From an uncultured Acidobacteriota bacterium (GTDB taxonomy: Bacteria > Acidobacteriota > Thermoanaerobaculia > Multivoradales > JAHEKO01), in contig CAVQNG010000001.1 of assembly GCA_963713825.1 (NCBI GenBank), forward strand, positions 32,001-96,000: a stretch of DNA of 64,000 bases. Reading direction: 5' to 3'. Positions within the stretch are counted from its first letter, which is position 1; each line of letters starts with the position of its first letter. Under the pieces are notes generated by a model that searched no databases, was not told the DNA's origin, and saw nothing but the letters and a program-made list of their open reading frames with translations. The position numbers were made by a program, and so were the translations under genes. Below are positions 3,308 to 44,965 of this stretch, in pieces.

Positions 3308-4165
3308 CTATCTGTGCGGTCGGGCCTGAACGTGGGGTGGGGAGGGGTAAAGCTGGAGGCTGGTGTCAGTCTGGGCAATGCGGACAGCCGGGTAGATGCG
3401 AAGGACATCTGTGAGGTGAGTCAGGGCCTTGCGCCGGAAGTCTCGCCGGCGGGAATAGTCGGCTCCGAACTGGGCCTCGAGACTCTCCCAGGGAATCGAC
3501 GTCGGCTTTCTTAGATAGCTCATCCGGTAGGTAAGCCACACGTAGAGGTCGATTGCCAGGGGTGAGCCGCGCAAGCGGCGGATCGCTCGCAGATCCACGG
3601 GGACCGCGGAACGGGTGATCTCCCGGAAGAAGTGACGGTCGAGAACCACCCTGGGATCCCAAGTCGATCGACGCAGGAGAAGGCTTGAGGCGAGTGCTTG
3701 CAAGGACGGATTGGATGTGGATACGAAGCGTTGACTTCGGGCCCCGGTGCAAGTGTCCTCATATGATCGCCAACTCCATCGTGTCGATAGGAGCCGGCGG
3801 AGCTGATCCTCCAGTCGACGTGCGGTGCCACGCGGTCCGCTGATCGTCGACAGACCCAGCTTTCGTGCTAAGTCATTGGGCGTAGCGCCGGGATGAATCT
3901 CGGGGTTCTTGGTTCGAACCGCTTCAGTGGTCAGGTAGACGAGAAGCAGCCGCGGATAAGAGCCGTAGGGTAGGCCGACACGCCGAGGTGCCCGCAGTCG
4001 GAGCGTGTGGCGACCGTTCACCCGCTTGAACCGGTGGCTCTGTGGCCGGCGATGGGGGAGGGTGGTGAGGACCAGGAGGCGCGGCATGAAGCCGAGTGCA
4101 CCCGCGGTCAGGGCGTCCTCGGACTCCAGAGACGAGAGATTCTCCGCTGGGCTCACGAGAGCCAT
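3308..4165 (-). CDS. repA: Plasmid-type replication initiator RepA (RepA_C / IncW-like), copy 1
   Basis: GFMPR..LP.R.P, R.NG, GLPYGSYPRL..TTEAVRT, PVDLRA..L..SPLAIDLYVWLTYR, PWESLEAQFGADY motifs. ATG 4165 is conserved across the three copies. Confidence 0.85.
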   Translation of the reverse strand: MALVSPAENLSSLESEDALTAGALGFMPRLLVLTTLPHRRPQSHRFKRVNGRHTLRLRAPRRVGLPYGSYPRLLLVYLTTEAVRTKNPEIHPGATPNDLARKLGLSTISGPRGTARRLEDQLRRLLSTRWSWRSYEDTCTGARSQRFVSTSNPSLQALASSLLLRRSTWDPRVVLDRHFFREITRSAVPVDLRAIRRLRGSPLAIDLYVWLTYRMSYLRKPTSIPWESLEAQFGADYSRRRDFRRKALTHLTDVLRIYPAVRIAQTDTSLQLYPSPPHVQARPHR

Positions 4166-4510
4166 CAACGACAGCACCTGACAACAGAGAGGTAACAATT
4201 TTGGTAACAATGAAGGACAACAGATGCCCGTAATCGACAGCAGACGGCAATTACGCCTGTCGGCGTAAGTCGCGTGTTTTGTTGCGGTTGCGTGCTGTCA
4301 TCTGTTGTGGAGTGTGAGTTTTCAAAGGACTTAAAATCCCCCAGCCGAAAGGCTATCCGGGTTCAAATCCCGGCTCCGGCACCAAGTTAACTTACACAAA
4401 TAGATGGACTTACGGAGCTTCGGGATATCTTCGTCCGGGCGCTCTTTGGGGCAGTGGTAACAATTTTGGTAACACTGAACCACAACAGATGGCCGCAGTC
4501 GACAGCAGGG
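4160..4510. repeat. att-like junction 1 (repeat / tRNA-Leu 3' half / repeat)
   Basis: GGTAACAATTTTGGTAACA at 4191-4209 and 4456-4474; TTACGCC-TGTC-GGCGTAA palindrome at 4251-4268; homologous to 33290-33635 and 44795-44965. Confidence 0.85.
4327..4384 (+). tRNA. tRNA-Leu(UAA) 3' fragment (att core, not an intact tRNA)
   Basis: GGA-CTTAAAA-TCC anticodon loop, long variable arm AGCC-GAAA-GGCT, T-arm CCGGG-TTCAAAT-CCCGG, CTCCGGC-A-CCA end. No D-arm or 5' acceptor strand (GCCGGAG) upstream. Confidence 0.85.
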
Positions 4511-4636
4511 TGCATCGCATCTGCATTCAGGGCCTGGGGACCGGTTGTGGTCGAGCAGCACAGCGTTCGGTGATCAGCGGGGCGGACCGGGGCGTCGTTG
4601 AGAAGCACTCGCGCGGTCAGGTAGGCTTGCTGCATC

Positions 4637-7414
4637 GTGGAGCACGACACGACCCTCCTGCGCACCAAACTGCACCGGCCGACAGTGGCCGGCGACCTGG
4701 TGGATCGCCTGCGGCTGGACGAGCTGATGGACTCTGCTTTGGAAGTGCCACTGACCCTGGTCTCGGCGCCGGCAGGGTACGGCAAGAGCATGCTCGTCAG
4801 TCACTGGTCCGAGTCGCAGGAGATGGCTCACACCTGGGTATCTCTCGACGAGGCGGACAGCGACCTGTCGGTTTTTCTGAGCTACCTGCTGGCCGCGGTG
4901 AGGAAGATCCTTCCTGAAGCCTGCCCAGAAACGGAAGCCCTGCTCCGCGCCCCCAATCTGCCACCGCTGAATGTGCTGGCCAGCATTCTCACCAACGAAC
5001 TGGACGCGATTGAAAACCCGTTTGTTCTGACTCTGGACGACTATCACGGCATCGAGCCGGCCTCCGAGGTGCACGACCTGCTCAGGCTTGTCCTGGAGCA
5101 TCCTCCGCAGCCCCTCCACCTGGTGCTGGTGACCCGGCGAGACCCGCCCCTGCCGATCGCGTCGATGCGCGCTTTGCGTCAGGTGAACGAAGTGCGGCTT
5201 CAGGATCTTCGGTTCAACGACCGGGAGACTTCGGACTTCCTTGTCGCCACCGCCGGCCTCGAGATCAGTGACGATTCCCTGGCCAACCTGCAGCGGCAGA
5301 TCGAAGGTTGGGCTGTGGGCTTGAGCCTGGTCTCACAGTACCTACGCCATCACGAGGATCCCGAGGAGTTCTTGAAGAGCTTGAGCGGCGGCATTCAACT
5401 CACCCAGCAGTACCTCGTGCAAGAGGTCATCGCGGGACGCTCGCCCTTGATGCAGGAGTGGTTGTTGAGGACGTCGATCCTCGACCGGTTCTGCCCTGCC
5501 CTGTGCGATGCGGTGTGCGCTGGTGAAGGGGAGTCTGGAAGCGATGATCTCGATGGCGATCAGTTCATTGAAGCGCTGCTGCGGGTCAACCTCTTCGCTA
5601 TCTCCCTGGACAGTCGGGGGAAGTGGTTTCGGTATCACCATCTCTTTCGGGAGTCGCTCGAGAAAGAGCTGCAGCGCCGCCTGGAACCGGGCGAGATCTC
5701 CGCACTCCACCTGCGAGCCAGCGAGTGGCTGGAGTCCCGTGGGCTGATCACCGAGTCGATCGAGCATGCCCTGAGAGGCGAAGACGTCGAGAGCGCAGCC
5801 GACCTGATCGAACGGCATCGGCATCGGGAAGTGAATGCAGATCGCTGGTATGTCGTCGGCAAGTGGATGGCGAGGCTACCGCCAGAGATCAAGCAAGAGA
5901 GGCCCGGACTCCTTTTGGCGCAGGCATGGATTGCCTTTTGGCGATTCGAGCTTCCGAGACTCCCCCCGCTCCTCGACCAAGCGGCTCGGGTCCTAGGCGA
6001 CGTTTCGGTGGAGCCGGAACTTGCGGGAGAGCTGGATTTCCACCGCGGCAACCTGGCGTATTGGGACGGTGACTGCGAAGGTGCCGTGAAACCTCTGGAG
6101 CAGGCGCTGGAGAAGACCAGGGGAATCGGCGGCATCGTCGCGGGCAACGTCGAGATCATGCTCGGCCTGGCCCGCTGCATGAGTGGCCGACGCGAAGTGG
6201 CAATCGAGGCTCTCAACGACCGGATTCGGACGGTTGATGCCCAAGACGTGATGCTCCTCTCTCACCTGATCGCCACTCTCGTCTATATCCATATCGCGTC
6301 TGGCGATCTGGCCTCGGCCCGTCTCGCTGCGGATCAACTGCGGTCGATCTCGAAGAGAGCACCGATGCACAACACCGCCGCCTGGGGTCACTACTTCGTG
6401 GCGTGTACGTGCTTGCACTCACTCGAGCTGGGCCGGGCAGCCCAGGGCTTCGCCGACTCGGTTCAGCGCCCATATGTCTTCGAGCCACGAGCGGCTGTCG
6501 ATGCTTTCACGGGTCTTGCGCTCGCGCAACAGCTGGCCGGAGAGGACGGGCAAACTGAGAAGACCATGGCGCGCCTTTTCAGTTTCGTTCAGGCAATGAA
6601 CTCTCCTGACTACTTGATCATGGCCCATGCCTGTCGTGCCCGACTGTCCGTTCTGCAGGGCGATGTGAGGTCCGCTATCGAGTTGACAGGCTCCCTCGGC
6701 GAGGATTCCGCTCTGCCAGACCTGTTCACCTGGCTCGAGATCCCTGCGATCACCCATGCGAGGGTCCTGATCGCGGCGGGGTCCAAGCAGGGCCTGACCC
6801 GGGCAAACGAGTTGCTCCAGACCATCCGCGAACGAAGTGAGACCTGGCGGCTCAGGTGCCAGACGATCGAAGTAACGGTACTTCTGTCCTTGGCCCTGGA
6901 AAAGCGAGGACTTGCCACAGAGGCCGTCGAAGCTCTCCAAGAGGCGGTAGAGCTGGCGCGGCCAGGGGGCTGGGTGCGGCCCTTCGTCGAGGCTGGCCCC
7001 ACGATGGCCGAGATGCTCGAGCGTCTGGACGAGCAGGAGGAATCTGCTGGATTCGTCCAGCGAGTGTTGACGGCCTTCGCTGCAACCGGCGCTCCTGCGC
7101 CGCCGCCGGCCCCGCTCGAGGAGCCGAGTGCTACTGCAACTGCTGCTGCGGCCCCTGCCCCGACCCCGAAGGCTCTCGACGATTTGACCGATCGCGAGCT
7201 CGACGTGCTCGAGCTGCTGGCGCAGCGCCTGCAAAACAAGGAGATCGCCGCTCAGCTCTGCATCTCCACCCATACGGTGAACTATCACCTCAAGCACATC
7301 TACGACAAACTCGGTGTCCAGAGCCGCCGCCAGGCTGTCGAGCAAGCCGTGGAGCGTGGGATCCTCGATCGATCTCGGCTCTGGGGCAAACCGTCCGCGC
7401 CGCGCCGCCAGTGA
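4637..7414 (+). CDS. MalT-like large ATP-binding LuxR (LAL) transcriptional regulator
   Basis: LLRTKLHRP start, P-loop [31 protein letters not shown]-terminal LuxR HTH ([11 protein letters not shown]...[19 protein letters not shown]). Confidence 0.93.
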
Positions 7415-7448
7415 GACGGTACCTGCCGTAGGCGCTGGGCGGAGTCAA

Positions 7449-7516
7449 CCCCCTTATTTCCCCCCCATTTCCCCCACACTCCTGGGGATGCGGGCCTACC
7501 GCGGAGTGCTTAGGCT
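7449..7516 (+). promoter_or_regulatory. Conserved C-rich activator box/promoter, copy 1
   Basis: CCCTTATTTCCCCCCCATTTCCCCC...GGGGATGCG-N18-TAGGCT. Confidence 0.7.
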
Positions 7517-7526
7517 AGGGGTGGCC

Positions 7527-8594
7527 GTGAAGACGACTGCCAGATCGAGGTATCTTGCGACGCTGATGATGGCCTCGAGCTTCATCGGTTGTGTCGCGCA
7601 CACCAGCTCACCACCCGCCTCCATGCCACCAGAGTCTCTCGAGCTCCGCGAGCCGTCTGCTACTCAGCTCTTCTCCTACGAGCGCCGAGAGATTCCGTTC
7701 AAGAATCGGATGCTGGACAAAGAAGAGACGTCGCTCTATCGCGTGCGCTACGTCCGCTTTCCCTCGATCGGTGACAACGGTCAACCGGGCAATCTCGTAA
7801 GGGGCAAGTACTACGAAAGCAAGTTGCAGGGTCGGAAGCCCATGGTCGTGGTGCTGCCTATCTGGGGTCGGCATGTCTATCCACCCGAAAAGATCACCGC
7901 TCATTTGCGGCGACGCAGCCGCGGCCACGTCAATGTCTTTCAGATGGAGGGTCCGAATCACCTTCTCGATTGGCAGGGCCTGGCCTCCGCCCCAGATGAG
8001 GCGTCCTATCTGGATCTCTGGAAGCAGGGCGCGCAACGTGAGTGGGTGGCGATCACCGATATTCGCCGCATCCTCGATTGGGCGAAAACCAGGCCGGACT
8101 TGGACTCCGAACGCATCGGTCTGGTGGGCTTCAGTCATGGAGCCATGGTGGCCGGGGCCGTGGCGGCGCAGGAGCCCCGATTAGCTGCGACCGTTCTGGT
8201 CATGGGTGGTGCGCTGGCCCACCAGGTGCTGGCGCAGTGCCCGCTGACCCGTAGCGCCCCGGCCAGATCGAAGGCCGTGACCGAGTTTGGATGGAGCCCG
8301 GACGAGCTCGAGCAGCGGCTCCAGCCGATCTTCGCGCCCCTGGATCCGGCAAGCTATCCGGGAAGGGTCGATCCGCAACGGGTGCTGATCGTCGAGGCGG
8401 CGCAGGATCAGTGCATGACCGAGACCGCCCGTGAGGCACTCTGGGAGTCGATGGGTCAACCGGAGCGGATACTCATTCCGACTCGGCACAAGCGGGCCTT
8501 TCTGGGAATGACACCGCTGGGATTCAACTGGCTCCGTCACCGGATTGGCGACTTCCTGCTGCGAACCTTGGAGCTGCCAGGGGAGATCCCCTAG
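7527..8594 (+). CDS. Alpha/beta hydrolase, probable lipoprotein
   Basis: GFSHG nucleophile elbow after D.ERIGLV; FIGC lipobox-like. GTG start chosen downstream of the promoter motif. Confidence 0.75.
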   Translation: MKTTARSRYLATLMMASSFIGCVAHTSSPPASMPPESLELREPSATQLFSYERREIPFKNRMLDKEETSLYRVRYVRFPSIGDNGQPGNLVRGKYYESKLQGRKPMVVVLPIWGRHVYPPEKITAHLRRRSRGHVNVFQMEGPNHLLDWQGLASAPDEASYLDLWKQGAQREWVAITDIRRILDWAKTRPDLDSERIGLVGFSHGAMVAGAVAAQEPRLAATVLVMGGALAHQVLAQCPLTRSAPARSKAVTEFGWSPDELEQRLQPIFAPLDPASYPGRVDPQRVLIVEAAQDQCMTETAREALWESMGQPERILIPTRHKRAFLGMTPLGFNWLRHRIGDFLLRTLELPGEIP

Positions 8595-8605
8595 GATTCT
8601 GCGAC

Positions 8606-8672
8606 TCCCTTAATTCCCCCTCGATTCCCCCTTATTCCGAGGGATTCGGGGCCTGCCGGGGACACACAGAAT
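8606..8672 (+). promoter_or_regulatory. Conserved C-rich activator box/promoter, copy 2
   Basis: CCCTTAATTCCCCCTCGATTCCCCCTTATTCCGAGGGATTCG-N18-CAGAAT. Confidence 0.75.
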
Positions 8673-8698
8673 GTAGCTGTGGCCCACGGAGGTGTGAG

Positions 8699-9670
8699 AT
8701 GAAGTTCGAAAGGTCGCTTTTCGCCAGCGTAATCGGCTGCTGCCTGGCTATCGCCTTGCTAGCCAGCCCGACCGAGGCCCAGTTCCTGGGTCACAACTTC
8801 ACCGGTGACATGGGTCTGATGTCCGGCACCCAAGGGCCACCCGGTTGGAATGTGGCGGCAGTGTATCTGCGCTACGACGGCGAGACCCTGCGTGGCCCTG
8901 ACGGGGAGTCGATCGCGATCGACCCTGACGAGCAGGGCTCGTTGGATGCCAACGCCTATGCGGTCGCCATCACCTGGGTTGCCGAGAAGAAGATCCTGGG
9001 CGGCAACTACAGCTTCGGGATCTTTCCCGCCTTCACCGACAACAGGTTCGAAGTGCCGATTCTCAGTCTGGATGAGAAGGTCGATACGGGCTTTACAGAT
9101 ATCTACATCCAGCCCATCAACCTCGGTTGGCACAAGGAGCGCGCCGACTACATCGCGGGTGTGGGGATCTATGCCCCCACGGGCAGCTACGACGTCAGCG
9201 CCGACGACAATCTCGGATTGGGAATGTGGAGCTTCGAGCTCTTCGGTGGGACCACGGTCTATCTCGACAAGGCCAAGAGCTGGCACTTCGCCACCTCGGC
9301 CTTCTACGAGATGCACTCCGAGAAGAAGGACACCGACATCAGAGTCGGCGACATCCTCACCCTCGAGGGCGGCCTGGGCAAGTCCTGGATGCAAGGTGCG
9401 CTGACCTTCGGGATCGCGTACTTCGCCCAGTGGAAGGTCACCGAGGACCGGGCCGGAGAGCTGCAGCCCATTCTCGACGAGCTCCAGCTCGGCAGACACC
9501 GGGGCTACGGTTTCGGACCGGAGCTGACCGTGCCGATCGCCACAAGCAAGAAGCTGATCGGCTTTATCAACGCTCGCTTCCTGTGGGAAACGGGCATCCG
9601 CAGCCAGCTGGAGGGAACTGTCTTCACCCTGGCCGCCTCGTTCCCGATACCGAGCATCGCGCTGCAATGA
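8699..9670 (+). CDS. SphA / MetA-pathway-of-phenol-degradation family outer-membrane channel
   Basis: Signal peptide; ..D.Y.QP..LGWH, APTGSYD...N.G motifs; amphipathic beta strands. Confidence 0.8.
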   Translation: MKFERSLFASVIGCCLAIALLASPTEAQFLGHNFTGDMGLMSGTQGPPGWNVAAVYLRYDGETLRGPDGESIAIDPDEQGSLDANAYAVAITWVAEKKILGGNYSFGIFPAFTDNRFEVPILSLDEKVDTGFTDIYIQPINLGWHKERADYIAGVGIYAPTGSYDVSADDNLGLGMWSFELFGGTTVYLDKAKSWHFATSAFYEMHSEKKDTDIRVGDILTLEGGLGKSWMQGALTFGIAYFAQWKVTEDRAGELQPILDELQLGRHRGYGFGPELTVPIATSKKLIGFINARFLWETGIRSQLEGTVFTLAASFPIPSIALQ

Positions 9671-9709
9671 GACCCCAGTTGGGTCTGAACATCAAGAAAG
9701 GACTATGAA

Positions 9710-10057
9710 ATGGGACTTTTTGGAGACGACAAGAGGCAGGACGAACAGATTGCGGCCCTGGAAGAGCATATCCGCATCCTGACCGAGACGGTTCAGGCCA
9801 ATCAGGTGGATCTCATTGAGGGCCGGATCGTTCTGCTGGCGCTGCAGGCGCAAATTAATGAGAAGGTGTCGGCAGCAGATGTCGACCCGACGATTGTTCA
9901 GCTCAACGAGGAGCTGACGACCGCACGGGATCAGCTCGAAGAGGCCACGGCCGCCGCCTCGGAGAGCTGGGCGACCCTGCAGCAGGGGGTCCGTGACGCG
10001 TTCGAGACGCTGCGTACCAGCGTTCGTCAGGCGGCGGAGAGGGTCAAGCAGAGCTGA
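9710..10057 (+). CDS. Hypothetical coiled-coil protein
   Basis: 115-aa ORF with AAGGA RBS and heptad-rich sequence. Confidence 0.65.
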   Translation: MGLFGDDKRQDEQIAALEEHIRILTETVQANQVDLIEGRIVLLALQAQINEKVSAADVDPTIVQLNEELTTARDQLEEATAAASESWATLQQGVRDAFETLRTSVRQAAERVKQS

Positions 10058-10114
10058 CGCAGGCAGCACTCCTGACTCGACGTACAACCCAGAGGGTGTC
10101 GTAAGGAGGCCCCA

Positions 10115-10474
10115 ATGCCAGATCTGGAAGACCAAGCACTCGAGGTAGATTCGTCACAGGACCGTGCCGAGACAGAACCCTCGGGTATTGCTTTGCCGAG
10201 CTTGCAGTCCATAAGCTGGTCGCTCATCGCTGGCGGTGCCCTGGGTGCCCTCGCCAACCTGCTGACCGGCCGGCGCAGACTGATGGACTGGATTGTGCCC
10301 GTGAGTCTCCTCGGCCTCGGAGCCGGCGTGCTGCTCCAACAGCGTCAGACCCGATTGGAAGCTACTCAGCAGACCATCATCGCCGAGCTCGACGCCTTGG
10401 ACCCGATCGCCCGAGCTCAGGTGTTGCAAGCGGTCGCCAAGGAGCAGCTCGGCTGGGATTCCGACGACGACTAG
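10115..10474 (+). CDS. Hypothetical small membrane protein
   Basis: AGGAGG RBS; two hydrophobic segments. Confidence 0.65.
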   Translation: MPDLEDQALEVDSSQDRAETEPSGIALPSLQSISWSLIAGGALGALANLLTGRRRLMDWIVPVSLLGLGAGVLLQQRQTRLEATQQTIIAELDALDPIARAQVLQAVAKEQLGWDSDDD

Positions 10475-10508
10475 GGCGTGTCCTGGTCGGCGAGCTCGAC
10501 GCCAAGTC

Positions 10509-11459: not shown

Positions 11460-11488
11460 CCCAGCATGACGACCAGGAGGAAACGGCC

Positions 11489-11674
11489 ATGACACACGTT
11501 CGTATCATTCTCAACGGTAAAGGGGCCGCCAACCCTCAGGTTCGCGCGGCCATTGAGCGGATTCGAGAACAGGGGCAGACGCTCGAGGTGCGGGCCACCT
11601 GGGAAGGCGGCGACGCCGCCCGGTATGCGCAGAAGGCGCTGCACGATGGTGTGGGAGGTTCAAAGGCACAATGA
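11489..11674 (+). pseudogene. yegS: Truncated YegS lipid kinase (N-terminal ~55 aa only)
   Basis: RIILNGK...REQGQTLEVRATWEGGDAARY matches the YegS N-terminus; stops before the GGGDGT motif. Confidence 0.75.
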
Positions 11675-12264: not shown

Positions 12265-12273
12265 GGCTCCCTC

Positions 12274-14727: not shown

Positions 14728-14744
14728 CCCGACCCGGATCCGAA

Positions 14745-14812: not shown

Positions 14813-14877
14813 AAATAGCACTGCGAATCTCATCTGGCGGAGTCAAGCGCCCAGACAGGACCGTAAGGAGGACGATC

Positions 14878-33635: not shown

Positions 33636-33657
33636 ACTGCAACGACTCCGCTAGTCT

Positions 33658-36674: not shown

Positions 36675-36772
36675 CTTAGGCCTCCTGACTTCGAACCCTG
36701 GAGCTCCAGCCCCGCCGTTCGATCACAAACGACCCCGCCCCGCGGCCGTGCGGGTGGGGGCGGGGCCCGCGA

Positions 36773-38173
36773 TTACCGCAGGGTGTTTTTGTAAATCTTT
36801 CCGTCCTTCATTATCATCGCGAAGTTGTTCTCCGCATCGGCGACGAGGTCGAGATTTTCCAGGGGATTACCGTCGACCAGGATGAGGTCCGCGTAGGCAC
36901 CTTCCTCGATCACGCCGAGGGGCCCTTCGGTGTATGGGTTGCGCGGACCGCACAGCGCCAGCAGTGCGGCGTTGGTCGAGGTCGCCATCTTGAGCACTTC
37001 GTGCGGTGTGAACCAGCGTTCGAGCTTGGCCAGCATTTTTCCCTGCTTCTCTGCCGCCACGGGATCAAAGAGCATGTCGGTGCCGAACGCGATCTTGACG
37101 CCGATCTCTTTGGCCGCCCTGTAGATTCGGTCGGTGCCGGCGGTTACGGCCTCAAACTTCTCGGTGCTGTACGGGTTGTCAAACTGCAGCGCATCCTCGT
37201 CATTCAGGAGCGGCTGGATACTCAGCCAGACGTCGTTGTCCTTCATCATCTGCAACGTCTCATCGCTCATGAGGAAGCCGTGCTCGATCGACTTGATCCC
37301 TGCCCTGATCGCGGTCTGCGTCGCCTTGTCGGTGAAGATGTGGGCGGCAACGTAGGTGTTCCACGTCTCGGCGACATCGACGACCGCCTTCATTTCATCA
37401 AAGGTGTACTCCTGAACGTCGAGTGGGTCGAAGGCGGACGAAACGCCGCCTCCGCCGGCGATCTTGAGCTGGGTTGCGCCCATGCGCAGGTTCTCTCGGG
37501 CCCGCTTGATCACCTCCGGCACGCCGTCGGCGACCATGATAAGGCCGTTGCGCTCCCAGTAGCTCAGCGGATCGGTGCTGTTGGCCGGGACGTCGTTCTT
37601 TCCGCGAAAATCGAAGTGGCCCGAAGTCTGGCTGATTGGCGGGCCCGATGGGAACATCCGCGGACCAGGATGCTCGCCGGAATCCGTGAATTTCTTGATT
37701 GCAAACGGGTTGCCGCCGATATCGCGGACGGTCGTGAAGCCTCGCATCAGCGTCCTCTCGGCGCCGAGGAAGCCGATGATCGCGACCTCGGACATGTCGC
37801 CCGTAAACATGATGCTCTGCGGCGCGTAGGCATAGTAGGTGTGCCAGTGGGCGTCGATCAGGCCGGGAATCAGCGTCCGACCGCCGCCGTCGATCACTGT
37901 CACGTTGTCGGTCTGGATGAGAGCGAGAGGTGCGTCCGACACGGTCTCGATGAGGTTGTCCTTTACCAGGACATGCATGTTTTTGTGGAGTTTTTCGGAC
38001 GTGCCGTCAAAGATGTTGACGTTGCTGATGAGCACGAGCGTCGGCGCTGGCTGGCTCGCTTCCTGAGCCAGGCTTGCACCGCAGAGAATGCTCGTCAGCA
38101 ATCCGATCACGGCAACCCGTGAAGTTCTTCTGCTCCGTTGCCTATTCATGGTCCGAATCTTCTGGTCTTTCAT
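36773..38173 (-). CDS. Metal-dependent amidohydrolase (prolidase/imidazolonepropionase-like)
   Basis: PGLIDAHWH, GFTTVRD.GG, SQTSGH.D, SIEHG, AFGTD, GAYADLILVDGNPL. Confidence 0.9.
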   Translation of the reverse strand: MKDQKIRTMNRQRSRRTSRVAVIGLLTSILCGASLAQEASQPAPTLVLISNVNIFDGTSEKLHKNMHVLVKDNLIETVSDAPLALIQTDNVTVIDGGGRTLIPGLIDAHWHTYYAYAPQSIMFTGDMSEVAIIGFLGAERTLMRGFTTVRDIGGNPFAIKKFTDSGEHPGPRMFPSGPPISQTSGHFDFRGKNDVPANSTDPLSYWERNGLIMVADGVPEVIKRARENLRMGATQLKIAGGGGVSSAFDPLDVQEYTFDEMKAVVDVAETWNTYVAAHIFTDKATQTAIRAGIKSIEHGFLMSDETLQMMKDNDVWLSIQPLLNDEDALQFDNPYSTEKFEAVTAGTDRIYRAAKEIGVKIAFGTDMLFDPVAAEKQGKMLAKLERWFTPHEVLKMATSTNAALLALCGPRNPYTEGPLGVIEEGAYADLILVDGNPLENLDLVADAENNFAMIMKDGKIYKNTLR

Positions 38174-38318
38174 CGATTCCCTCTATTCAGTTTTTCTGAT
38201 CGGGATGCGGGTCCCGGCGTTATTCATGATCAACGTGGGATGGACCCAACGAATAACAGTTGCCGCAGGTAGGGCCCGCCCGACAGATCGTCGGAAGCGA
38301 CGGCCTCAGACTTGGAGA

Positions 38319-39965
38319 TCAATCTAGGTGAAAGTCCTCCATGCCCGGCACACCGCCGCCGAAGTCGATCGGCGCGGCATAGAACTCCTGCGTCCATCCC
38401 TCGATCGTGATCGGCTCGAAGTGGCTCCCTTCGGGCGGGTAGCGGACCGGTTGGCCCGGGGTGACACCCTCGAGCACCTGCGAGTCGTTGACGACAATGG
38501 TGCCGTTGACCACCACGTACGGGATGCCGACAGAGGGAAGCGTTCCCTTTTCATAAGTCGCCTTGTCGGTCACGGTTTCCGGGTCGAAGATGGTGATGTC
38601 CGCCACCATCCCCTGCTGGAGACGGCCCCGTTCCTGCATCGCCTTCAGTCCCATCCTGCCGAGGGGCAGGGCCGAGTTGTAGCTGGACATTGCAACGATC
38701 TGCATCAGAGGGATGTTGTTCTCGCGCGCCAGGCGAAAGGCCTTCGCAAAGCTGCCGGCCGCTCGCGGATGTGTATTGGGGAGATCCTCGTACGGGGTGT
38801 CCCAACGCAGGTCGTCGTCGGGGATCATGGGCATGCCGTCGGTGATCAACGTGACGCCCGGCAGCTGGAGCCAATCGGTGATGGCCGACTCGGGCATCTT
38901 GAAGACCAGCACCGCCCGGGTCGGTTCCTTCGCGACCATCTGCTCGCGCGTCTCCTGCGTATACCACTCGCCGGTCGCCACATCCTGGATGGTCTCTTCG
39001 TACTTGTACCCCAGGGTGTCGACCCACATCTCCGGTTCCAGGAAGACCGCGTTCAGGGCCGTGGAGCCGGCGGCATAGGGGTAGATCTCTCCCCAGACGT
39101 TCATGCCGCGGTCCCGCATCCGGACCAGCAGCTCGTGCACCAGGTTATAGCCGGGGTTGTTGAAATGGCAGGCCAGCGCCGGCGAGCCCAGGGCCGCCGC
39201 GTTGGCGAGCAGCTCCTGGATGCCGTTGGCCTCGGTGGTGTCGGTTCCGGGTGTGTAGCGGAAGTGTGCGCCGGTCTGCCGCCCGTAGCGCCCGGCCAGC
39301 ACCTGCAGCTCGAAGAACTCGCGGGCGGACACACCGTCGCGCATATAGCCGAGGGTGGAACCGATGCCGAGTCCGCCCGCCTGCAACCCTTCATCCAGGA
39401 GCTGGAGGATTCTGTTGCCTTCCTCGAGGTTGGGTTGTTTACAGCACCAGCCGTTCCCTACAGCACGGCTGTTGGCGGCCGAACGTGTGTCCTGGCCATC
39501 GGTGAATCCGTCGAGCACCTCTGCACGGGCAAACTCATGAGCCACGGCCTGACCGTAGTTCACCTGGTTTTTCCCTTCCCGTTCCTTGTACCACTGGTCG
39601 AGATAGGGACCATGGGTGCCGATCTCCAGATCCAGGACCGTGGTCCGGCCATCGCGCAGGGCGAGCTTGTTGGACCAGGGCCGGTCGTAGTGCCAGTGGG
39701 TGTCGACGAAGCCCGGGGCAACCACGTGGCCCGTGGCGTCGATGGTCTCCTTGCCTTTGATCTTGTCCTTTGTGATGACGGCGATCCGGCCGCCGTTGAT
39801 GCCGACATTGGCGACCGCGTCGTACATGCTCTCCGGGTCCATGACCCGGCCGTTGAGGATGACGAGGTCGTAGTCCTGGGCCACGGCGACCTGCGCAACG
39901 GCAAGGAGCCCGCAGATGAGCGCTGCCGCGCCGATGATCTTCGAGAACTTCAATGTCCGTTTCAT
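38319..39965 (-). CDS. Secreted N-acyl-D-amino-acid deacylase-like amidohydrolase
   Basis: YDLVILNGRVMDPE, APGFVDTHWH, YPY.AGST, HPR.AG.F, GRLQ.GM.ADI.IFDP. Confidence 0.85.
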   Translation of the reverse strand: MKRTLKFSKIIGAAALICGLLAVAQVAVAQDYDLVILNGRVMDPESMYDAVANVGINGGRIAVITKDKIKGKETIDATGHVVAPGFVDTHWHYDRPWSNKLALRDGRTTVLDLEIGTHGPYLDQWYKEREGKNQVNYGQAVAHEFARAEVLDGFTDGQDTRSAANSRAVGNGWCCKQPNLEEGNRILQLLDEGLQAGGLGIGSTLGYMRDGVSAREFFELQVLAGRYGRQTGAHFRYTPGTDTTEANGIQELLANAAALGSPALACHFNNPGYNLVHELLVRMRDRGMNVWGEIYPYAAGSTALNAVFLEPEMWVDTLGYKYEETIQDVATGEWYTQETREQMVAKEPTRAVLVFKMPESAITDWLQLPGVTLITDGMPMIPDDDLRWDTPYEDLPNTHPRAAGSFAKAFRLARENNIPLMQIVAMSSYNSALPLGRMGLKAMQERGRLQQGMVADITIFDPETVTDKATYEKGTLPSVGIPYVVVNGTIVVNDSQVLEGVTPGQPVRYPPEGSHFEPITIEGWTQEFYAAPIDFGGGVPGMEDFHLD

Positions 39966-40079
39966 GTTCAATCTCCTTTGGTTCGGGTTTTCAAGCTCTG
40001 ACACACCTCACCACGCTCGAACACGTTGTCGTCATTGCGAGTCGCCGGCTCGCATCGTTGTCTTCTCCCAGCAGCCCGC

Positions 40080-41639
40080 TCAGTCCGTCGTCGTGCGCCG
40101 GATCGGCCGGCCCGGGTCGGCGTCGAGAATCAGCTCTCCCCGTTCGACGACCAGCTCGCCGTTCACCAGCAGTGCCTGCACGCCGATCGCCGGCTGGTTG
40201 GGCTCCTGGTAGGTCCCTACGTCGCTGATGGTTTCGGGGTCGAAGACCACGATGTCGGCATCCATGCCGGCCTGCATGCGGCCTTTCTTTTTCATCTGGG
40301 GAACGAACCCTTCCAGCGTCTGGGCCGGCATCAGAGTCATCTTGCGCAGGGCCTCCTGCATGCTCATCAACCTGCGTTCCCTGACGTAGGACCGCAGGAT
40401 CTTGGCGAAGGTTCCGTTCGACCGCGGGTGTGAGAACGCCTCTTCCGGCAGGGGCCATGCGTCTCCCTCGTAGTTCTCGATCTCGTTGTGATCGTCCACG
40501 AACATCCAGAACATCTCGTCGGACTCGATGAGGATGTCCGGGTGCAGCACAGACGCGTCGAGCAACGCGAGGTCGTCAGGGTTTTCTTCGTCGAGAAAGT
40601 GCCAGACGATGAACGTGCCGGGCTTGTTCTTCTGGTAGTCAGCCAGCTGCTCTTCGGTCATGCGGCTGGTGCCGAGCTGGAAGTTCTCGGCGGTGGACCC
40701 CATGCGCTCACGCCAGCCGTCGCCGCTGAACATCGCGGCGCCGACCACCGTGCTCGCGGCACCCCAGGGATAGGCGCCGACGGAAATGTTGATGCCGCGC
40801 TCCATGGCGTTGTCGATCAGGGGCAGGATGGTGTGGATGCTCTTGAGTGACGTGCTGTTGATGTGGCACAGGTGCATGTGGGCGCCCGTGATCGCGGCGT
40901 TTCCGATCAGTTCCTGCACGGCTTCGAACGAGCTCTCGGGCTCTGCATTGCTGGCATAACGCACGTGGGTGAAGGTGGCGACGCCTCGTTCGGCGGCCAG
41001 TTCGGCCAGCGCGAAGTACTCCTTGTGGCCGTAGCCCGGGGCGTAGCCCGCATTGATGCCGATGCCCAGGGCACCCTGATCGAGACCCTGCTCGACCAGG
41101 TCCAGGATCATCTGCTGCTGCTCCGGCGTCGCGATCTCCATCTTCCAGTCGCTGCGGCTCTGGGCGTCCTGGAAGTAGGCGGCCGTCGCCTCGGGCTGAG
41201 TCTCCGTGAAGGTGGCGATACGAGCGTACGTCCAGGCAGACGCAGCGCCATAGTTGATGGGGAGCTTCTTCTTCGCCTGGCCGTCGTACCAGGCCGAGAT
41301 CGGCAGCACGCCCGACTCCAGTTCGAGCATCGTCGTGACGCCCTGCATGGCCTGCATCCGATAGTCGCCGATGTTCTGGCCGTGGGCATGGATGTCGATG
41401 AACCCGGGCGCGACAACGTGGCCTGTGGCGTCTATTGTTTCCCTGCCACTGATCGAGTCCGTGGTGATCGAGGCGATCGTGGCATCCTTGACGCCGACGT
41501 TTGCGATGGCGTCGTACCCGGTCTCCGGGTCCATGACCCGGCCGTTCAGGATGACCAGGTCGTAGTCGGCCGCAACAACCCCTACGGCCGGCGCCAGGGC
41601 CAACGCAACCCAACTCAGCAGCATCACTGTCCGTTTCAT
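40080..41639 (-). CDS. Secreted N-acyl-D-amino-acid (D-glutamate) deacylase-like amidohydrolase
   Basis: APGFIDIHAH, GVTT.LELE.G, HPRSNGTF, KGR...G.DADIVVFDP. Confidence 0.85.
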   Translation of the reverse strand: MKRTVMLLSWVALALAPAVGVVAADYDLVILNGRVMDPETGYDAIANVGVKDATIASITTDSISGRETIDATGHVVAPGFIDIHAHGQNIGDYRMQAMQGVTTMLELESGVLPISAWYDGQAKKKLPINYGAASAWTYARIATFTETQPEATAAYFQDAQSRSDWKMEIATPEQQQMILDLVEQGLDQGALGIGINAGYAPGYGHKEYFALAELAAERGVATFTHVRYASNAEPESSFEAVQELIGNAAITGAHMHLCHINSTSLKSIHTILPLIDNAMERGINISVGAYPWGAASTVVGAAMFSGDGWRERMGSTAENFQLGTSRMTEEQLADYQKNKPGTFIVWHFLDEENPDDLALLDASVLHPDILIESDEMFWMFVDDHNEIENYEGDAWPLPEEAFSHPRSNGTFAKILRSYVRERRLMSMQEALRKMTLMPAQTLEGFVPQMKKKGRMQAGMDADIVVFDPETISDVGTYQEPNQPAIGVQALLVNGELVVERGELILDADPGRPIRRTTTD

Positions 41640-41670
41640 TCTGTTTTCCCTTTCACGTTCCCTTCGTTCT

Positions 41671-43137
41671 TCATTCGCCTGCCAGATACTTGGCGGCGCG
41701 GCGCAGGAAACCGGGCAGCTTGTCCTCTCCGTAGGGCGGGATATAGCCGTTGGTCGAGTAGTAGACGCCGACGAAGTCGCGAGCCGGATCGATGTAGATC
41801 CCCTGGCCGACGTTGCCGTGCTTCCACAGCGCGCCGTCAGCGAACACCGCGTCGAACTGGATCGAGTTCATCAGCGGCGCCTCGCCGAAGTCTTCCTTCA
41901 GGCCTTCGAACTTGGCCCCGGCCTGGAACGCCTCGACGTTGCCCCCGGTCTGCAGTCTTTTCAACACTGTGCCCGAGACGATCGGCTCCACCGCCGTCTT
42001 ATTCCAACTCGGGGTGAAGATCATGCCGAAGCGGGCGAAGTCTTCGAGGGTGGTCGAGATCAGCCCGTGCGCCACCGCCGTGCCGTCGGGCATCAGGTGC
42101 CAAAGGAAGTCCTGGCGGGCGCCGACCTTGCTCCAGACCCGCTCCTGAAACAGCTTGGCGAAGGTCAGGTTATCGAGCTTCTCGGCGGCGAGGACGAAGA
42201 CCTGGGTGACCGCCGAGGAGTATCGGAACACTTCGCCCGGTCCTTCGCCCTCGAGCTGCTCGGCTTCTCTCAGGATATCGAGCCAGTTCTCCATCTCGCC
42301 GGTGTTGGGGTTCGGCGCGCCGAACTCGGCCGAGAAGAACCGCACGATGATCGATGACGGGTCGATGATCGAGTCGAGCGTCTCTTCGAGGGCAAGACCG
42401 GTCGCCATGTTCGCGGCGTCGATCATCGGGATGCCGTCCCAGTTCGTGCCGGCGAGCTCGGGGACGTAGTCGACGACGGGTTTCGAGAGGTCGATCTTGC
42501 CGTCCTCCTCGAGCATGGCGAGGATCAGGCCGACGGTCGCCTTGCCGGGCGACATCCAGATGTGGCGGTCCATCGGGTCCATCCCCGGGTAGGTCTCGTA
42601 GACGACCTTGCCCTTGTGGATCATCAGCACGCCCTGCACTCGGTGGTTGGGGTGGACGACATAGTCCGCGAGGCTCAGCTCCCCTTCCTTGGTCGTGAAT
42701 CGAACCGCCTCCCCGATGGAGCCGTCGATCTTCCGTTCGAGCGGCATGAATCTCGGGTTGGGTGACGAATAGGCGGTGGGGAGGAACTCGCCGAGGTTGA
42801 CGATGTAGTAGAGCGCGTGGTCGCCGCCGAGCTGGAAGTGGAAGTTGTCGAAGTGCGTCCGCGCCTCGTTGGCGAACTCGAACGAGAACGGCTCCTTCGC
42901 CACGTCGACGGGGAGCGTCGTTCTTGCTCCCGGCACCTCCAGGTACTCGGCCAGGGGATTGTCGCCGGAAGAAGCGGTTTCTCCCTCCACTGCGGCACGG
43001 TTGTCCATCGCGCCGTTCTCGGCCATGGTGGCTGAGGTGCCGTCAACCGTCCGATCGTCTCCGGCATTGCAGCCCCACGCCCCCAGCACCACAAGCATCG
43101 AAACCACAAAGCCTGATCTCAGTTTTCTACCGTTCAT
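41671..43137 (-). CDS. Serine hydrolase, class C beta-lactamase / NylB-like lipoprotein
   Basis: SxxK (SPGK), FRYSS, HGNVGQ, DFARFG; lipobox AWGC. Confidence 0.85.
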   Translation of the reverse strand: MNGRKLRSGFVVSMLVVLGAWGCNAGDDRTVDGTSATMAENGAMDNRAAVEGETASSGDNPLAEYLEVPGARTTLPVDVAKEPFSFEFANEARTHFDNFHFQLGGDHALYYIVNLGEFLPTAYSSPNPRFMPLERKIDGSIGEAVRFTTKEGELSLADYVVHPNHRVQGVLMIHKGKVVYETYPGMDPMDRHIWMSPGKATVGLILAMLEEDGKIDLSKPVVDYVPELAGTNWDGIPMIDAANMATGLALEETLDSIIDPSSIIVRFFSAEFGAPNPNTGEMENWLDILREAEQLEGEGPGEVFRYSSAVTQVFVLAAEKLDNLTFAKLFQERVWSKVGARQDFLWHLMPDGTAVAHGLISTTLEDFARFGMIFTPSWNKTAVEPIVSGTVLKRLQTGGNVEAFQAGAKFEGLKEDFGEAPLMNSIQFDAVFADGALWKHGNVGQGIYIDPARDFVGVYYSTNGYIPPYGEDKLPGFLRRAAKYLAGE

Positions 43138-43221
43138 TTCGTTACTCTCTCTCGAATCACCTTCGCATGCGCCTTCTCAGGCCGCGCCGCGTTTCATGGC
43201 GGGCCGCTTCCAGTGCCACCA

Positions 43222-43268
43222 AATATGCCACACGGTCGGGTGGAGAGTCTTGATGAAAAGTTGATGAA
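43222..43268 (-). promoter_or_regulatory. 11-bp-spaced direct repeat plus -10 box upstream of the hydrolase operon
   Basis: Minus strand: TTCATCAA-ctt-TTCATCAA-N22-CATATT. Confidence 0.5.
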
Positions 43269-43293
43269 CCGAAAGAGCCGCGTCGCTGCGCCG

Positions 43294-44586
43294 CTATTCG
43301 TACAGGACCAGGACGCGCGGGTCGTCCGCGAGGGCGTCCAGGCGGGGGTCGAAGCGTGCACCGGGAAACCACGGACAGTGTTCTTCACGTGCATCGTGCA
43401 GAAGGTCGACGACCCGCTCCGCGTCTCCCAGCGCGGTGTACGTCATAGCAACGTGCGGTTTGGGTGTCCTGGGCAGCGTTGCAGACGCTGCCGAGTCGGC
43501 GATCGACCTTGCCTCATCGGCCTCGCCGGCCTTGGCCAGGGCGTAGGAGAGCGCCGTCATGAAAGCGGGGTTTTTGGCGGTGATCCGAGCCGTCTGGCCG
43601 CCCGCCGCGATCGCCTCGTCGTAGAGGCCGAGCCACGCTGCCATGATGGCGACGTAGGCGTGCCCCAGATCGACATGCGGCTGGTCCTGGCGAACCGCAC
43701 GCTCGATCTCCAGAGCTTCCTGCCAGCTGCCGGCACAGAACAGGCTCCACGCGAGAGCGTGCTTGTTCAAGATGGAGTGTGGATCCAGCTCTACAGCGGT
43801 CCGTGTCGCCTCCACCGCTTCGTCGAGACGGCCAGCACCACGAAGGACCCAGGCACGATAGCTATGGCCGCGCGCGTAGTCTCTATCGAGCGCGAGCGCC
43901 TCGTCCAAAGCCGCAAGGCCCGCTTCTGTGTCGCGCCGCATGACGCCCTCTAGCCAGCCGAAGGCTGCGCGAGCGGAGACCAGATTCGGATCGATCGCCA
44001 GAGCCCGCTCACAGGCCTGAAGGGCCAGGCGCTCGCCGTCTGCAGGGCGCAGGTAGCCTCGAACGGTCTGATAGATGCGACAATCCGCGATCGCTGCGAG
44101 GGCCACGGCGTAGTCCGGGTCGACGCGCACAGCTTCTTCGAGCAACTCCACCGCGCGCGCGAGTGCCTCCGGTTGCTGGCGATTCGCGTCTCGCATCCCC
44201 TCGAGATAGTGGGAGTAGGCGAGAGGAGATGTCCTGGTTGTCTTTTCTGCCGTGGGGCGGCTCTCTGCGGGATCAATCCGCCTTACCGGTACCGCGAGGC
44301 GGTACCCCTGTTTCGGCACGGTTTGGATGTAGGCCTTCGGATCCGTATCGAGAATCCGCCGCAAGGAATACACACATCGAGCGATGGAAGCATACGAGAC
44401 AGTCTGGCCGGGCCAGACTTGGTCGTCAATCTGACCGGACTTCGCGATCTCGCCGTCGAGTTGGACCAGAGCTCGCAAGAATGCGAGCTCTTTCGGCGGG
44501 CACGGCACGTACTCGCCACCGCGGTACAGACCATCGTCCGGTTTCAGCTGATAGTCCCCGAACTCGTACAGGACTCGTGTTGCCAT
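43294..44586 (-). CDS. OmpR/CadC-type winged-helix plus TPR transcriptional regulator
   Basis: YEFGDY.L....L...GE.V.C.PKE...L....VW......SI..C.Y.LR..L...YI.TVP..GYR, followed by TPRs. Confidence 0.85.
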   Translation of the reverse strand: MATRVLYEFGDYQLKPDDGLYRGGEYVPCPPKELAFLRALVQLDGEIAKSGQIDDQVWPGQTVSYASIARCVYSLRRILDTDPKAYIQTVPKQGYRLAVPVRRIDPAESRPTAEKTTRTSPLAYSHYLEGMRDANRQQPEALARAVELLEEAVRVDPDYAVALAAIADCRIYQTVRGYLRPADGERLALQACERALAIDPNLVSARAAFGWLEGVMRRDTEAGLAALDEALALDRDYARGHSYRAWVLRGAGRLDEAVEATRTAVELDPHSILNKHALAWSLFCAGSWQEALEIERAVRQDQPHVDLGHAYVAIMAAWLGLYDEAIAAGGQTARITAKNPAFMTALSYALAKAGEADEARSIADSAASATLPRTPKPHVAMTYTALGDAERVVDLLHDAREEHCPWFPGARFDPRLDALADDPRVLVLYE

Positions 44587-44676
44587 TCGACGTTCCGCTC
44601 GGTTGAGTACCCAAGTCGTCTTGAGTTCTGACATTTTAGCTTTAGGGCGGCTCTGTACAACACCCCGGCAGCCTTC

Positions 44677-44799
44677 AGGTCGGCGATAGGGGAGGGTGGT
44701 GAGAACCAGGATCCGCGGCATGAAGCCGAGGGCACCGGCCGTAAGAGCGTCAGTGGACTCGAGGGAGAAACCGTCTCTCGCTGCCCTTATGGCTGCCAT
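44677..44799 (-). pseudogene. repA: repA remnant (first ~41 codons), copy 3
   Basis: MAAIRAARDGFSLESTDALTAGALGFMPRILVLTTLPYRRP matches the N-termini of copies 1 and 2; homology then ends. Confidence 0.85.
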
Positions 44800-44965
44800 C
44801 GACGACAGCACCTGACAACAGAGAGGTAACAATTTTGGTAACAATGAAGTACAACTGAAGGCCGTAATCGACAGCAGGCGGCATTTACGCCTGTCGAGTT
44901 AAGTCGCCTTTTTTGTTGTGTTTGCGTACTGTCATCTGCCGTGGAGTGTGCGTTTTTGAAGGACT
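44795..44965. repeat. att-like junction 3 (left half only)
   Basis: GGTAACAATTTTGGTAACA at 44825-44843; similarity to junctions 1 and 2 ends after AAGGACT (44959-44965). Confidence 0.8.

Follow-up and report, generated by a model that had tools for sequence, protein, structure and literature searches.

Integrase-less modules with repA genes stacked at tRNA-Leu(UAA) in an uncultured Acidobacteriota bacterium: an unusual variant of known island stacking

Introduction

Integron cassettes are promoter-poor units that lack a recombinase and are stacked at one site by a single recombinase acting in trans. Cis-mobilizable elements (CIMEs) and the tandem accretion of ICEs (integrative and conjugative elements) and IMEs (integrative and mobilizable elements) are reportedly known from work on ICESt1 and ICESt3 of Streptococcus. 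Here we describe an array of modules that carry a gene for a RepA_C-type replication initiator (repA), are joined by pieces of tRNA-Leu(UAA), and encode no integrase. The array was noticed in a stretch of 64,000 nucleotides (nt), which we call the window, from an uncultured bacterium of the class Thermoanaerobaculia (Acidobacteriota; assembly GCA_963713825.1). The assembly comprises 5.42 Mb in 38 contigs and is 96% complete, and the window is C1:32001-96000, where C1 is a 414-kb contig (CAVQNG010000001.1). Thermoanaerobaculia are common in sediments and their mobile elements are little described; in the literature on these elements, we found no title pointing to this family.

Several described systems come close. 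As a review outlines them, CIMEs are att-flanked elements that keep attL and attR without genes for integration or transfer and are stacked by accretion (PMC5704250). They arise by decay of ICEs or IMEs, accrete in tandem at tRNA genes, and are moved in cis by an adjacent functional element, according to the same review (PMC5704250). SGI1, in the account drawn on here, is a non-conjugative integrative island with a toxin-antitoxin system, and its RepA_C (PF04796) Rep protein is required to replicate the excised circle from an iteron origin (PMC7433901). Tycheposons of Prochlorococcus are portrayed as having an integrase at one end, a replication module beside it or at the other end, cargo in between, and partial tRNAs as flanks; each successive integration displaces the older elements inward, with degenerate remnants left behind (10.1101/2020.12.28.424599). 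Actinomycete integrative and conjugative elements (AICEs) such as pSAM2 are described as combining site-specific integration with a replication initiator for the excised form (PMC3218068).

Compared with these systems, the region is an unusual variant of known island stacking and not a new category. An initial annotation of the window, made from the sequence alone, had not recognized the combination as a described element. This was too strong, as CIMEs, SGI1, and tycheposons cover its parts.

Results

Junctions and array order

The window contains three copies of a 289-nt repeat family (window 4043-4331, 33172-33460, and 44677-44965), which start 29,129 and 11,505 nt apart. In an alignment of 1.5 kb per copy, copies 1 and 2 have a whole gene and about 350 nt of non-coding sequence in common, and copy 3 has about 290 nt. 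Two open reading frames (ORFs) on the minus strand, 3308-4210 and 32371-33360, had been called repA, and both match the RepA_C profile PF04796 far above the Pfam cut-off of 26 bits (86.2 and 90.8 bits). The initial annotation described an order of cargo, repA, and junction that occurs three times. The repeats, their spacing, and two of the RepA_C genes bear this out, but the third repA is a remnant of 41 codons and the third junction has a left arm only (Table 1). Its likeness to the other junctions breaks right after the GGACT of the anticodon stem (window 44965), with neither a tRNA half nor a right arm.

Junctions 1 and 2 do contain, as first noticed, a 3' half of tRNA-Leu(UAA) with the same repeat on both sides. 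The half is 58 nt long (tRNA positions 30-87, from the anticodon stem to CCA), and the repeat is a 19-mer, GGTAACAATTTTGGTAACA, that lies in the same orientation on either side, about 125 nt from the anticodon loop. We found no whole tRNA in the window with ARAGORN and no known RNA family in it with Rfam. Halves of 58 nt are present at four junctions on C1 and also on contig C3. The 19-mer is no chance feature: a search of the 5.4-Mb genome that tolerated up to three mismatches gave 12 sites, of which 11 are exact and one has a single mismatch, and every one of them belongs to such a junction. Five junctions lie on C1, two of them to the left of the window.

The genome's sole intact tRNA-Leu(UAA) gene is on another contig (C34:150874-150960), where it begins with GCCGGAG and is followed by a right arm. 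The first 90 nt of C1 match C34:151058-151147 at 90% identity, and C1 opens 6 nt past the position of a right-arm motif, so the contig broke inside a further junction. The array probably begins on C34, with the tRNA-Leu gene and then a module of at least 5 kb, and continues across a gap on C1, with modules of 6.4, 24.3, 5.6, 29.1, and 11.5 kb and finally the half junction 3. It was built of at least five members, and probably of six or seven. The initial annotation had suggested looking left of the window for more junctions, for a tRNA-Leu gene starting with GCCGGAG, and for a tyrosine integrase: two junctions are there on C1 and the tRNA gene is on C34, but C1 has no tyrosine integrase. The array is thus larger than first described.

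The tRNA halves in the two junctions to the left of the window, which are closer to the C34 tRNA in the inferred order, are 95% and 98% identical to the intact gene, and those in junctions 1 and 2 are 84% and 81% identical. Read by eye, the sequences of the halves diverge in the variable-arm and T stems, where the changes are compensatory. The graded identity and the compensatory changes fit tRNA ends that were brought in by elements and then displaced outward by successive integrations.

Another junction (C3:669401-670717; L005:9459-10718) has both arms, a tRNA half, and a repA that is 87% identical to copy 1 of the window. It sits inside a 1.9-Mb contig, and its neighbors are sulfatases, DUF4136, and DUF389.

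Pieces of other tRNAs are also arrayed in this genome (G000). There are seven tRNA-Ser(UGA) pieces within 48 kb of the gene (C3:453908-501606), three tRNA-Arg(UCG) pieces near their gene (C14:85987-113328), and two tRNA-Lys(UUU) pieces (C11:3358-15192), one of which directly adjoins a RepA_C gene. Pieces of tRNA-Glu(CUC) adjoin an integrase fragment (C3:1145266-1156502).

Recurrence of the backbone

We scanned metagenome contigs for the exact 19-mer, which gave at least 120 stretches (the counts derived from them hold among the matches listed), and we scanned relatives with a RepA alignment, using one genome per species, which gave 79 loci. The same backbone of repA, arm, tRNA half, and arm is found in about half (~60) of the metagenome stretches, all of high GC content, and in related metagenome-assembled genomes (MAGs). 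Taking the listed metagenome stretches together with the loci from genomes, there are 32 right arms and 46 left arms outside this genome, and the backbone does recur with different cargo, as had been proposed. Sixteen of the external right arms are followed by at least 1.5 kb of sequence. Among these, just one (L207) has an integrase within 3 kb, and their downstream cargo is varied, with 500 nt or more in common in only 3 pairs. Several contigs (L138, L156, L166, L205, and L218) have two junctions that are 3.6 to 9.5 kb apart, so arrays exist elsewhere too. Sequence that is near-identical to the first 9 kb of the window was present in runs of nine studies, from marine, salt-marsh, and freshwater sediments.

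Two relatives show the layout with an integrase. G016, a near-complete genome of the same family in 2 contigs, has a 48.7-kb island between an intact tRNA-Leu(UAA) and a 58-nt half. The order of this island is tRNA-Leu, arm motif, tyrosine integrase (380 amino acids), cargo, repA, arm motif, and tRNA half, and both arms have a dimer motif of its own, ATCCGCACTATATCCGCAC. When we searched for the empty site by synteny, the genes around tRNA-Leu in G016 did not flank tRNA-Leu in this genome. In the metagenome contig L207, the right arm has the GGTAACA motif and is followed after 34 nt by a tyrosine integrase of 354 amino acids that is 46% identical to the G016 enzyme.

The closest RepA loci are in MAGs titled Thermoanaerobaculia or Acidobacteriota, and several of these have multiple copies. 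In relatives, repA lies 150–250 nt from a 3' piece of tRNA-Leu(UAA), tRNA-Phe(GAA), tRNA-Lys(UUU), or tRNA-Arg(ACG) on the opposite strand; for tRNA-Glu(UUC), the pieces near repA are weaker matches of 15 nt, which are repeated in eight loci. RepA relatedness was compared with the tRNA target from pairwise identities and the list of adjacencies alone. Two short modules by tRNA-Lys(UUU), in L028 and on C11 of this genome, consist of repA and one or two cargo genes, with no integrase.

One same-genus genome (G004) matches the 29.1-kb module over its first 19.5 kb at 89–97% identity, and the other four (G001, G002, G003, and G005) have weak matches to the module, of 65–85% identity and at most about 900 nt. 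For the cargo of the 11.5-kb module, the five same-genus genomes have matches to the toxin-antitoxin genes and one 182-nt match of 79% identity only. The genes to the right of junction 3 have matches of 78–91% in G002-G005 and weak matches in G001, and the gene beside tRNA-Leu has matches of 74–81% in four of the five genomes. These comparisons suggest that modules differ between genomes of one genus, in line with the expectation of module gain and loss among relatives.

RepA and the conserved left arm

By its modeled fold, RepA is an iteron-type replication initiator. The AlphaFold model of copy 1, built from an alignment of 65 sequences, has a pLDDT of 81.4 and a pTM of 0.81. Its top Foldseek matches in the Protein Data Bank (PDB) are domains 2-3 of RctB (E = 2.3e-4, TM 0.48/0.50), RepE54 (target TM 0.50–0.56), and TrfA. 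These matches are to DNA-binding initiators only, and the fold has no recombinase or nuclease domain; a sequence-only search of the PDB with RepA gave no match. Genome-wide, PF04796 has nine matches, eight of them above the cut-off. More distant RepA homologues are found on complete small plasmids of 5–7 kb (L090, L092, and L096).

Codon comparisons indicate that RepA is under purifying selection: across the 588 pairs whose dS lies between 0.05 and 2, the ratio of nonsynonymous to synonymous divergence (dN/dS) has a median of 0.23. At external left arms, an intact ORF of at least 265 amino acids is present in ~35 of 45 cases, which is a crude count among the matches listed (10 right-arm sites were removed by hand from 55 motif sites). 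Downstream of repA, the copies have no conserved sequence, and likeness begins inside the gene.

The 162 non-coding nt of the left arm, from the repA ATG to the anticodon loop, have a mean pairwise identity of 87% (minimum 80%) across 20 unique junctions. In the same junctions, the spacer after the tRNA half is on average 55% identical and the 90 nt after the right motif are 47% identical. In the neighboring repA, synonymous divergence is close to saturation (dS ~1). Both 19-mers were required to be exact for this set, so their 100% identity in it reflects how the junctions were chosen. The left 19-mer is 26 nt upstream of the repA ATG, and the left arm also has a perfect hairpin, TTACGCCTGTCGGCGTAA, and CGACAGCAG boxes. 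These features make the left arm the leading candidate both for an operator or origin of repA and for the P arm of attP, the attachment site of the circular form. As for what binds the 19-mer, both arms bear GGTAACA-N5-GGTAACA, and its position and symmetry fit an arm site for integrase, and its length and proximity to the start of repA fit an iteron or operator.

We considered whether the 19-mer could be a universal marker for these elements and rejected this, as about half of the 120 or more stretches are unrelated low-GC contigs or coding repeats. In 11 low-GC contigs (GC content 0.36–0.46; L103, L113, L118, L123, L126, L127, L141, L153, L157, L164, and L181), the exact 19-mer sits between two host tRNA genes, just past a terminator-like hairpin, with no RepA. 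Two different integrases in L153 and L164 are inserted in the neighboring tRNA and belong to other elements. In two high-GC contigs (L105:9825 and L150:8361), the exact 19-mer is right-arm-like and lies ~66 nt past another tRNA, tRNA-Val (anticodon UAC by eye). A GmrSD-like gene comes next on L105, and we found no RepA or integrase on L105 or L150. On L207, the left arm (94-116) has ATTTGGTGCA twice and the right arm (377-395) has GGTAACA twice, so one tRNA-Leu core can join the arms of two element lineages.

Search for a recombinase or a helper

Whole-genome searches with PF00589, PF00239, PF07508, PF03432, and PF02534 gave no match on C1 to an integrase, serine recombinase, relaxase, or coupling protein, and Pfam scans of the ORFs in the window modules found no transposase or phage gene. 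The window modules are thus as devoid of mobility genes as first reported. The sole mobility gene that we found on the array stretch of C1 is an rve-type transposase in the 24.3-kb module. Right arms reach cargo within 57–163 nt, with no integrase remnant, and no integrase comes after any of the genome's six right arms. We also found no adjacent ICE or IME on C1 or C34.

The whole genome has five tyrosine recombinases (two Xer-like genes, C25:523198, a fragment on C3, and C35:202-1548) and one serine recombinase gene, at the start of C3. It has one relaxase and one coupling protein, both on C6 beside another intact RepA_C gene. This region (C6:11965-18703, on a 22.7-kb contig) includes the genome's best RepA_C match, a MobA-type relaxase, and a VirD4-type coupling protein, and to the right of its repA is a paralogue, at 44%, of the gene ahead of tRNA-Leu on C34. 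C6 is probably a conjugative or mobilizable plasmid or a piece of an ICE, and it is a possible transfer helper.

C35 also bears a repA paralogue and a similar dimer motif. Its integrase (C35:202-1548) is 100% identical over 407 amino acids to G003:C173:2-1222 from the same genus, and the tRNA-Leu flanks are only 74% identical. This suggests that the gene was transferred very recently, or that the contig is shared or mis-binned.

Public contigs (Logan; four runs from four studies) on C1:27001-47000, which includes two junctions, are mostly in pieces of less than 1.4 kb. A few joints connect the two repA genes, with sides of 26–39 nt, at non-equivalent positions, and at 90% likeness. We treated these joints as cross-mapping of related modules, which is neutral on excision.

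Comparison with described systems

Like CIMEs as reviewed in PMC5704250, the 24.3-, 5.6-, and 29.1-kb modules have att cores on both sides, with no match to a recombinase, relaxase, or type IV coupling protein on C1. In contrast, the 11.5-kb module has no distal core. Also unlike CIMEs, there are at least five to six modules here, each of which retains a gene for a replication initiator and an arm that is strongly conserved; modules without an integrase are the common form across metagenomes (15 of 16 right arms among the matches listed); and no adjacent ICE or IME that might move the modules in cis was found.

The array shares with SGI1, as described in PMC7433901, a RepA_C initiator in an integrative island and toxin-antitoxin genes. 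SGI1 has its own int and xis, targets trmE, has oriV directly downstream of rep, and is mobilized by IncA/C plasmids in that description, whereas the modules lack int and xis, lie at a tRNA, have no known helper, and have no conserved region downstream of repA. The tycheposon layout as given in 10.1101/2020.12.28.424599 is exactly that of G016, and the window modules share all of it but the integrase. They differ from tycheposons in host phylum, in having a RepA_C initiator instead of a primase or helicase, and in lacking the integrase that defines tycheposons in that account. The integrase lineage probably differs from the tycheposon-specific recombinase lineage as well. The int, xis, FtsK-like Tra, and rolling-circle initiators (RepSA/RepAM) of AICEs, as listed in PMC3218068, are all absent from these modules.

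The likeness to integron cassettes that the initial annotation drew is an analogy only. The junctions are tRNA halves with arms and not attC sites, there is no Pc promoter, the modules are 5–29 kb with their own regulators, and there is no IntI among the five tyrosine recombinases as classed, a classing in which IntI-specific features were not examined. As in islands of tyrosine integrases that target tRNA genes, there are tRNA 3' repeats and an intact tRNA gene (by way of the inferred link from C34 to C1), but an integrase encoded by the element is found in G016 and L207 and not here.

Proposed explanation and alternatives

We think it somewhat probable that the modules are non-autonomous but functional members of a family of integrative replicons that target tRNA genes, stacked by accretion and in need of an integrase in trans. 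The attP of the circular form would have three parts, with the 3' half of tRNA-Leu (anticodon loop to CCA) between the left arm and the right arm. Transcription of repA leads away from the left arm, and that of the tyrosine integrase in autonomous members leads away from the right arm. Each incoming element would give the tRNA a new 3' end and push the old end outward. A cognate integrase acting in trans would recombine modules in the anticodon loop, and RepA would replicate the excised circle from an origin in or beside the conserved left arm. In this scheme, we infer the action of an integrase in trans, the crossover site, present-day mobility, replication, and the identity of the protein that binds the 19-mer. 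Replication as circles, which the initial annotation had also raised, is suggested by analogy to SGI1 only.

The stacked members have no integrase, which makes them non-autonomous (CIME- or satellite-like). Excision by an integrase in trans, another proposal of the initial annotation, is made plausible by the relatives that have an integrase at exactly the vacant spot (G016 and L207), but the assembly yields no cognate enzyme. We favor functional over inert modules because every module keeps repA and the conserved arm, the integrase-less form is the commonest, and there are no integrase remnants.

Several results weigh against this explanation. There is no cognate integrase in this 96%-complete assembly. 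The genome's best match to the L207 integrase is the C25 enzyme, which is 51% identical and adjoins tRNA-Lys(CUU). The C35 integrase (448 amino acids, with an Arm-DNA-binding domain) was rejected as the tRNA-Leu enzyme: its homologues are at tRNA-Glu(UUC), tRNA-Gly, or tRNA-Arg, and the closest of them are at tRNA-Glu(UUC). (The genome's tRNA-Glu(UUC) is at the very start of C11, and across 45 genomes of the family, the C35 integrase, with a match in 20, does not track the 19-mer, with a match in 6.) The check for circular junctions that the initial annotation proposed gave no usable excision or circle joint in the Logan contigs of the four runs, whose pieces are short. This lineage has six repA copies in the genome, and no more than three are intact: the copy at C1:5569-6048 is broken, the one at C1:29764-30522 carries an internal deletion, junction 3 retains a remnant, and the N-terminus of the C3 copy is altered. 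At junction 3, where the array ends distally, there is no tRNA half, and the order of C34 and then C1 is inferred rather than assembled. The simple model does not account for the C3 junction, which has no intact tRNA-Leu and no second junction nearby. Finally, the absence of modules from same-genus genomes is suggestive only, because the MAGs compared for module presence or absence are 70–100% complete.

A bolder version of the explanation is possible, if on balance doubtful. The integrase-less RepA-att module would be no product of decay but the stable and dominant form of the family (a "satellite replicon") that stacks like giant cassettes behind a tRNA gene and relies on a rare helper integrase for excision and insertion, the 19-mer would be a control site shared by RepA and integrase, and recombination and replication would be coupled.

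The strongest rival, which we consider unlikely, is that the modules are inert relics. Elements with integrases would have integrated serially and then lost the integrase, which would leave an immobile array of decayed CIMEs, with repA and the arm kept by chance, by recency, or by a role in the host. The broken repA copies, the truncated distal junction, and the missing cognate integrase all fit such decay, and tandems usually reflect decay followed by accretion, as the IME review puts it (PMC5704250). On the other hand, no integrase remnants are seen in the 57–163 nt between right arm and cargo. Fifteen of the 16 external right arms, among the matches listed, are without an integrase too, and their cargo is diverse. 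RepA has a dN/dS of 0.23 with 35 intact external copies, and the left arm is 87% identical while dS in repA is ~1, near saturation. The 29-kb module is also present at 89–97% identity in only one genome of the genus.

Far less probable is a reading in which the 19-mer pairs are iterons or operators of RepA, with RepA involved in, or directing, integration and excision, or in which plasmids were captured by another route. The 19-mer is of iteron length, its left copy is close to the repA start, and RepA has the fold of a two-winged-helix initiator. Furthermore, the motif varies by element lineage (a separate one is present in G016, in the tRNA-Lys element on C11, and in the left arm of L207) and is retained in modules that have RepA and no integrase. 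However, the RepA fold has no recombinase or nuclease domain, the right-arm copy is just upstream of the integrase gene wherever there is one, and the same 19-mer follows tRNA-Val in L105 and L150, where no RepA was found. Pairs of direct repeats ~125 nt on either side of a tRNA core are also the usual layout of integrase arm sites.

An artefact of assembly or binning, in which separate elements were joined by collapse or chimerism, is very improbable: the assembly is in 38 contigs and contigs do break at junctions (the start of C1, and relatives' contigs that end at the tRNA), but the junction copies are too diverged to collapse at 75–85% identity, each is bordered by unique cargo within one 414-kb contig, independent contigs (L138, L156, L166, L205, and L218) have the two-junction arrangement, and the junction flanks are covered by contig pieces with 0 differences that come from runs belonging to several studies.

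If the modules are active, as we favor, then catabolic, transport, and toxin-antitoxin genes would be shuffled between species as units of 5–30 kb without a recombinase of their own, with a natural division of labor between a helper integrase and many RepA-bearing cargo units. If they are inert, the array would still document with unusual clarity how elements accreted serially at a single tRNA gene. The small conserved backbone (~0.9 kb of repA and 0.35 kb of att region) is a marker for such islands in metagenomes, and it could seed replicon or integration tools for Acidobacteriota.

Module cargo

The modules have a common plan: right arm, usually a toxin-antitoxin pair, cargo, regulator, repA, and left arm (Table 1). 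What directly follows the right arm is either a toxin-antitoxin pair or a regulator. The 29.1-kb module encodes a MalT/LuxR regulator, an alpha/beta hydrolase, three MetA-like outer-membrane proteins, BrkB, two DUF502 proteins, and MscS, along with six DUF1254-DUF1214 paralogues, a sulfatase fragment, an RHH antitoxin with a PIN toxin, and DUF481.

Table 1. Features of the array. Positions are in the window unless a contig is given.
Feature	Position	Strand	Details
repA copy 1	3311..4165	-	285 aa from ATG at 4165; PF04796 86.2 bits
repA copy 2	32374..33294	-	PF04796 90.8 bits; 56% identical to copy 1
repA remnant	44677..44799	-	First 41 codons, fused in frame to the Trans_reg_C/TPR regulator ORF
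19-mer pair, further-left junction	C1:6249/6524		Junction spans C1:6249-6542
19-mer pair, next junction left of window	C1:30548/30813		Junction spans 30548-30831
19-mer pair, junction 1	C1:36191/36456		Window 4191/4456
19-mer pair, junction 2	C1:65320/65583		Window 33320/33583
19-mer, left copy alone, junction 3	C1:76825		
19-mer pair on C3	near 669.5 kb	-	
19-mer, right copy alone	C34:151034		73 nt past intact tRNA-Leu(UAA)
Junction 1, left arm (candidate P arm)	4166..4326	+	repA 5' leader; 19-mer 4191-4209; hairpin TTACGCCTGTCGGCGTAA; CGACAGCAG boxes
Junction 1, putative att core, tRNA-Leu(UAA) 3' half	4327..4384	+	blastn 84% over 58 nt to intact gene
Junction 1, right arm (candidate P' arm)	4385..4524	+	19-mer 4456-4474; left end of 29.1-kb module
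Junction 2	33295..33651	+	Left-arm 19-mer 33320-33338; tRNA half ~33454-33511; right-arm 19-mer 33583-33601
Half junction 3	44800..44965	+	Left arm alone; 19-mer 44825-44843
5.6-kb module cargo	210..3098		Module starts at C1:30742, left of window; Pfam
Sulfatase, 5.6-kb module	210-2006	-	Pfam Sulfatase 130.6 bits
AraC-type regulator, 5.6-kb module	2094-3098	+	HTH_18 72.2 bits
29.1-kb module cargo	4637..32419		Pfam scans, paralogue repeats
Two toxin-antitoxin pairs, left end of 11.5-kb module	33658..35022	-	ParE/RHH; HepT/MNT nucleotidyltransferase (Pfam)
11.5-kb module cargo	35229..44630	-	DcaP-like porin, three amidohydrolases, beta-lactamase-fold hydrolase, Trans_reg_C + TPR regulator (Pfam)
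79-aa ORF and ParE-like toxin, right of junction 3	45175..45664	+	Pfam ParE_toxin 23.7 bits

A further module, now degraded, may have its left end in the genes just right of junction 3, which we infer to belong to the array. Toxin-antitoxin genes are present at the left ends of four modules (C1:460-2308, C1:6620-8142, window 33658-35022, and window 45175-45664). The first two of these, to the left of the window, start with AbiEii/AbiEi pairs. The left-end toxin-antitoxin genes occupy the spot that the integrase has in autonomous relatives.

The six DUF1254-DUF1214 paralogues (window 14878-16479 and 21883-30909) are a large local expansion; five are near-tandem, and they are interleaved with the MetA-like outer-membrane genes. 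The 29.1-kb module, and no other, also has five plus-strand copies of a 35–45-nt element (TTCCCCCTCGATTCCC...AGGGATTCG), at window 7458-7492, 8614-8648, 14754-14788, 21539-21573, and 30926-30960; it was seen in 0 of 100 shuffles. Each copy is right behind one gene and ahead of the next operon. The MalT/LuxR regulator of the module might use the element as an operator, or the element might be a terminator-like repeat. A block of ~210 nt is duplicated at 73–80% identity (window 21646-21855 and 31043-31252) and includes a small ORF without a Pfam match, and each block directly follows one 45-nt element.

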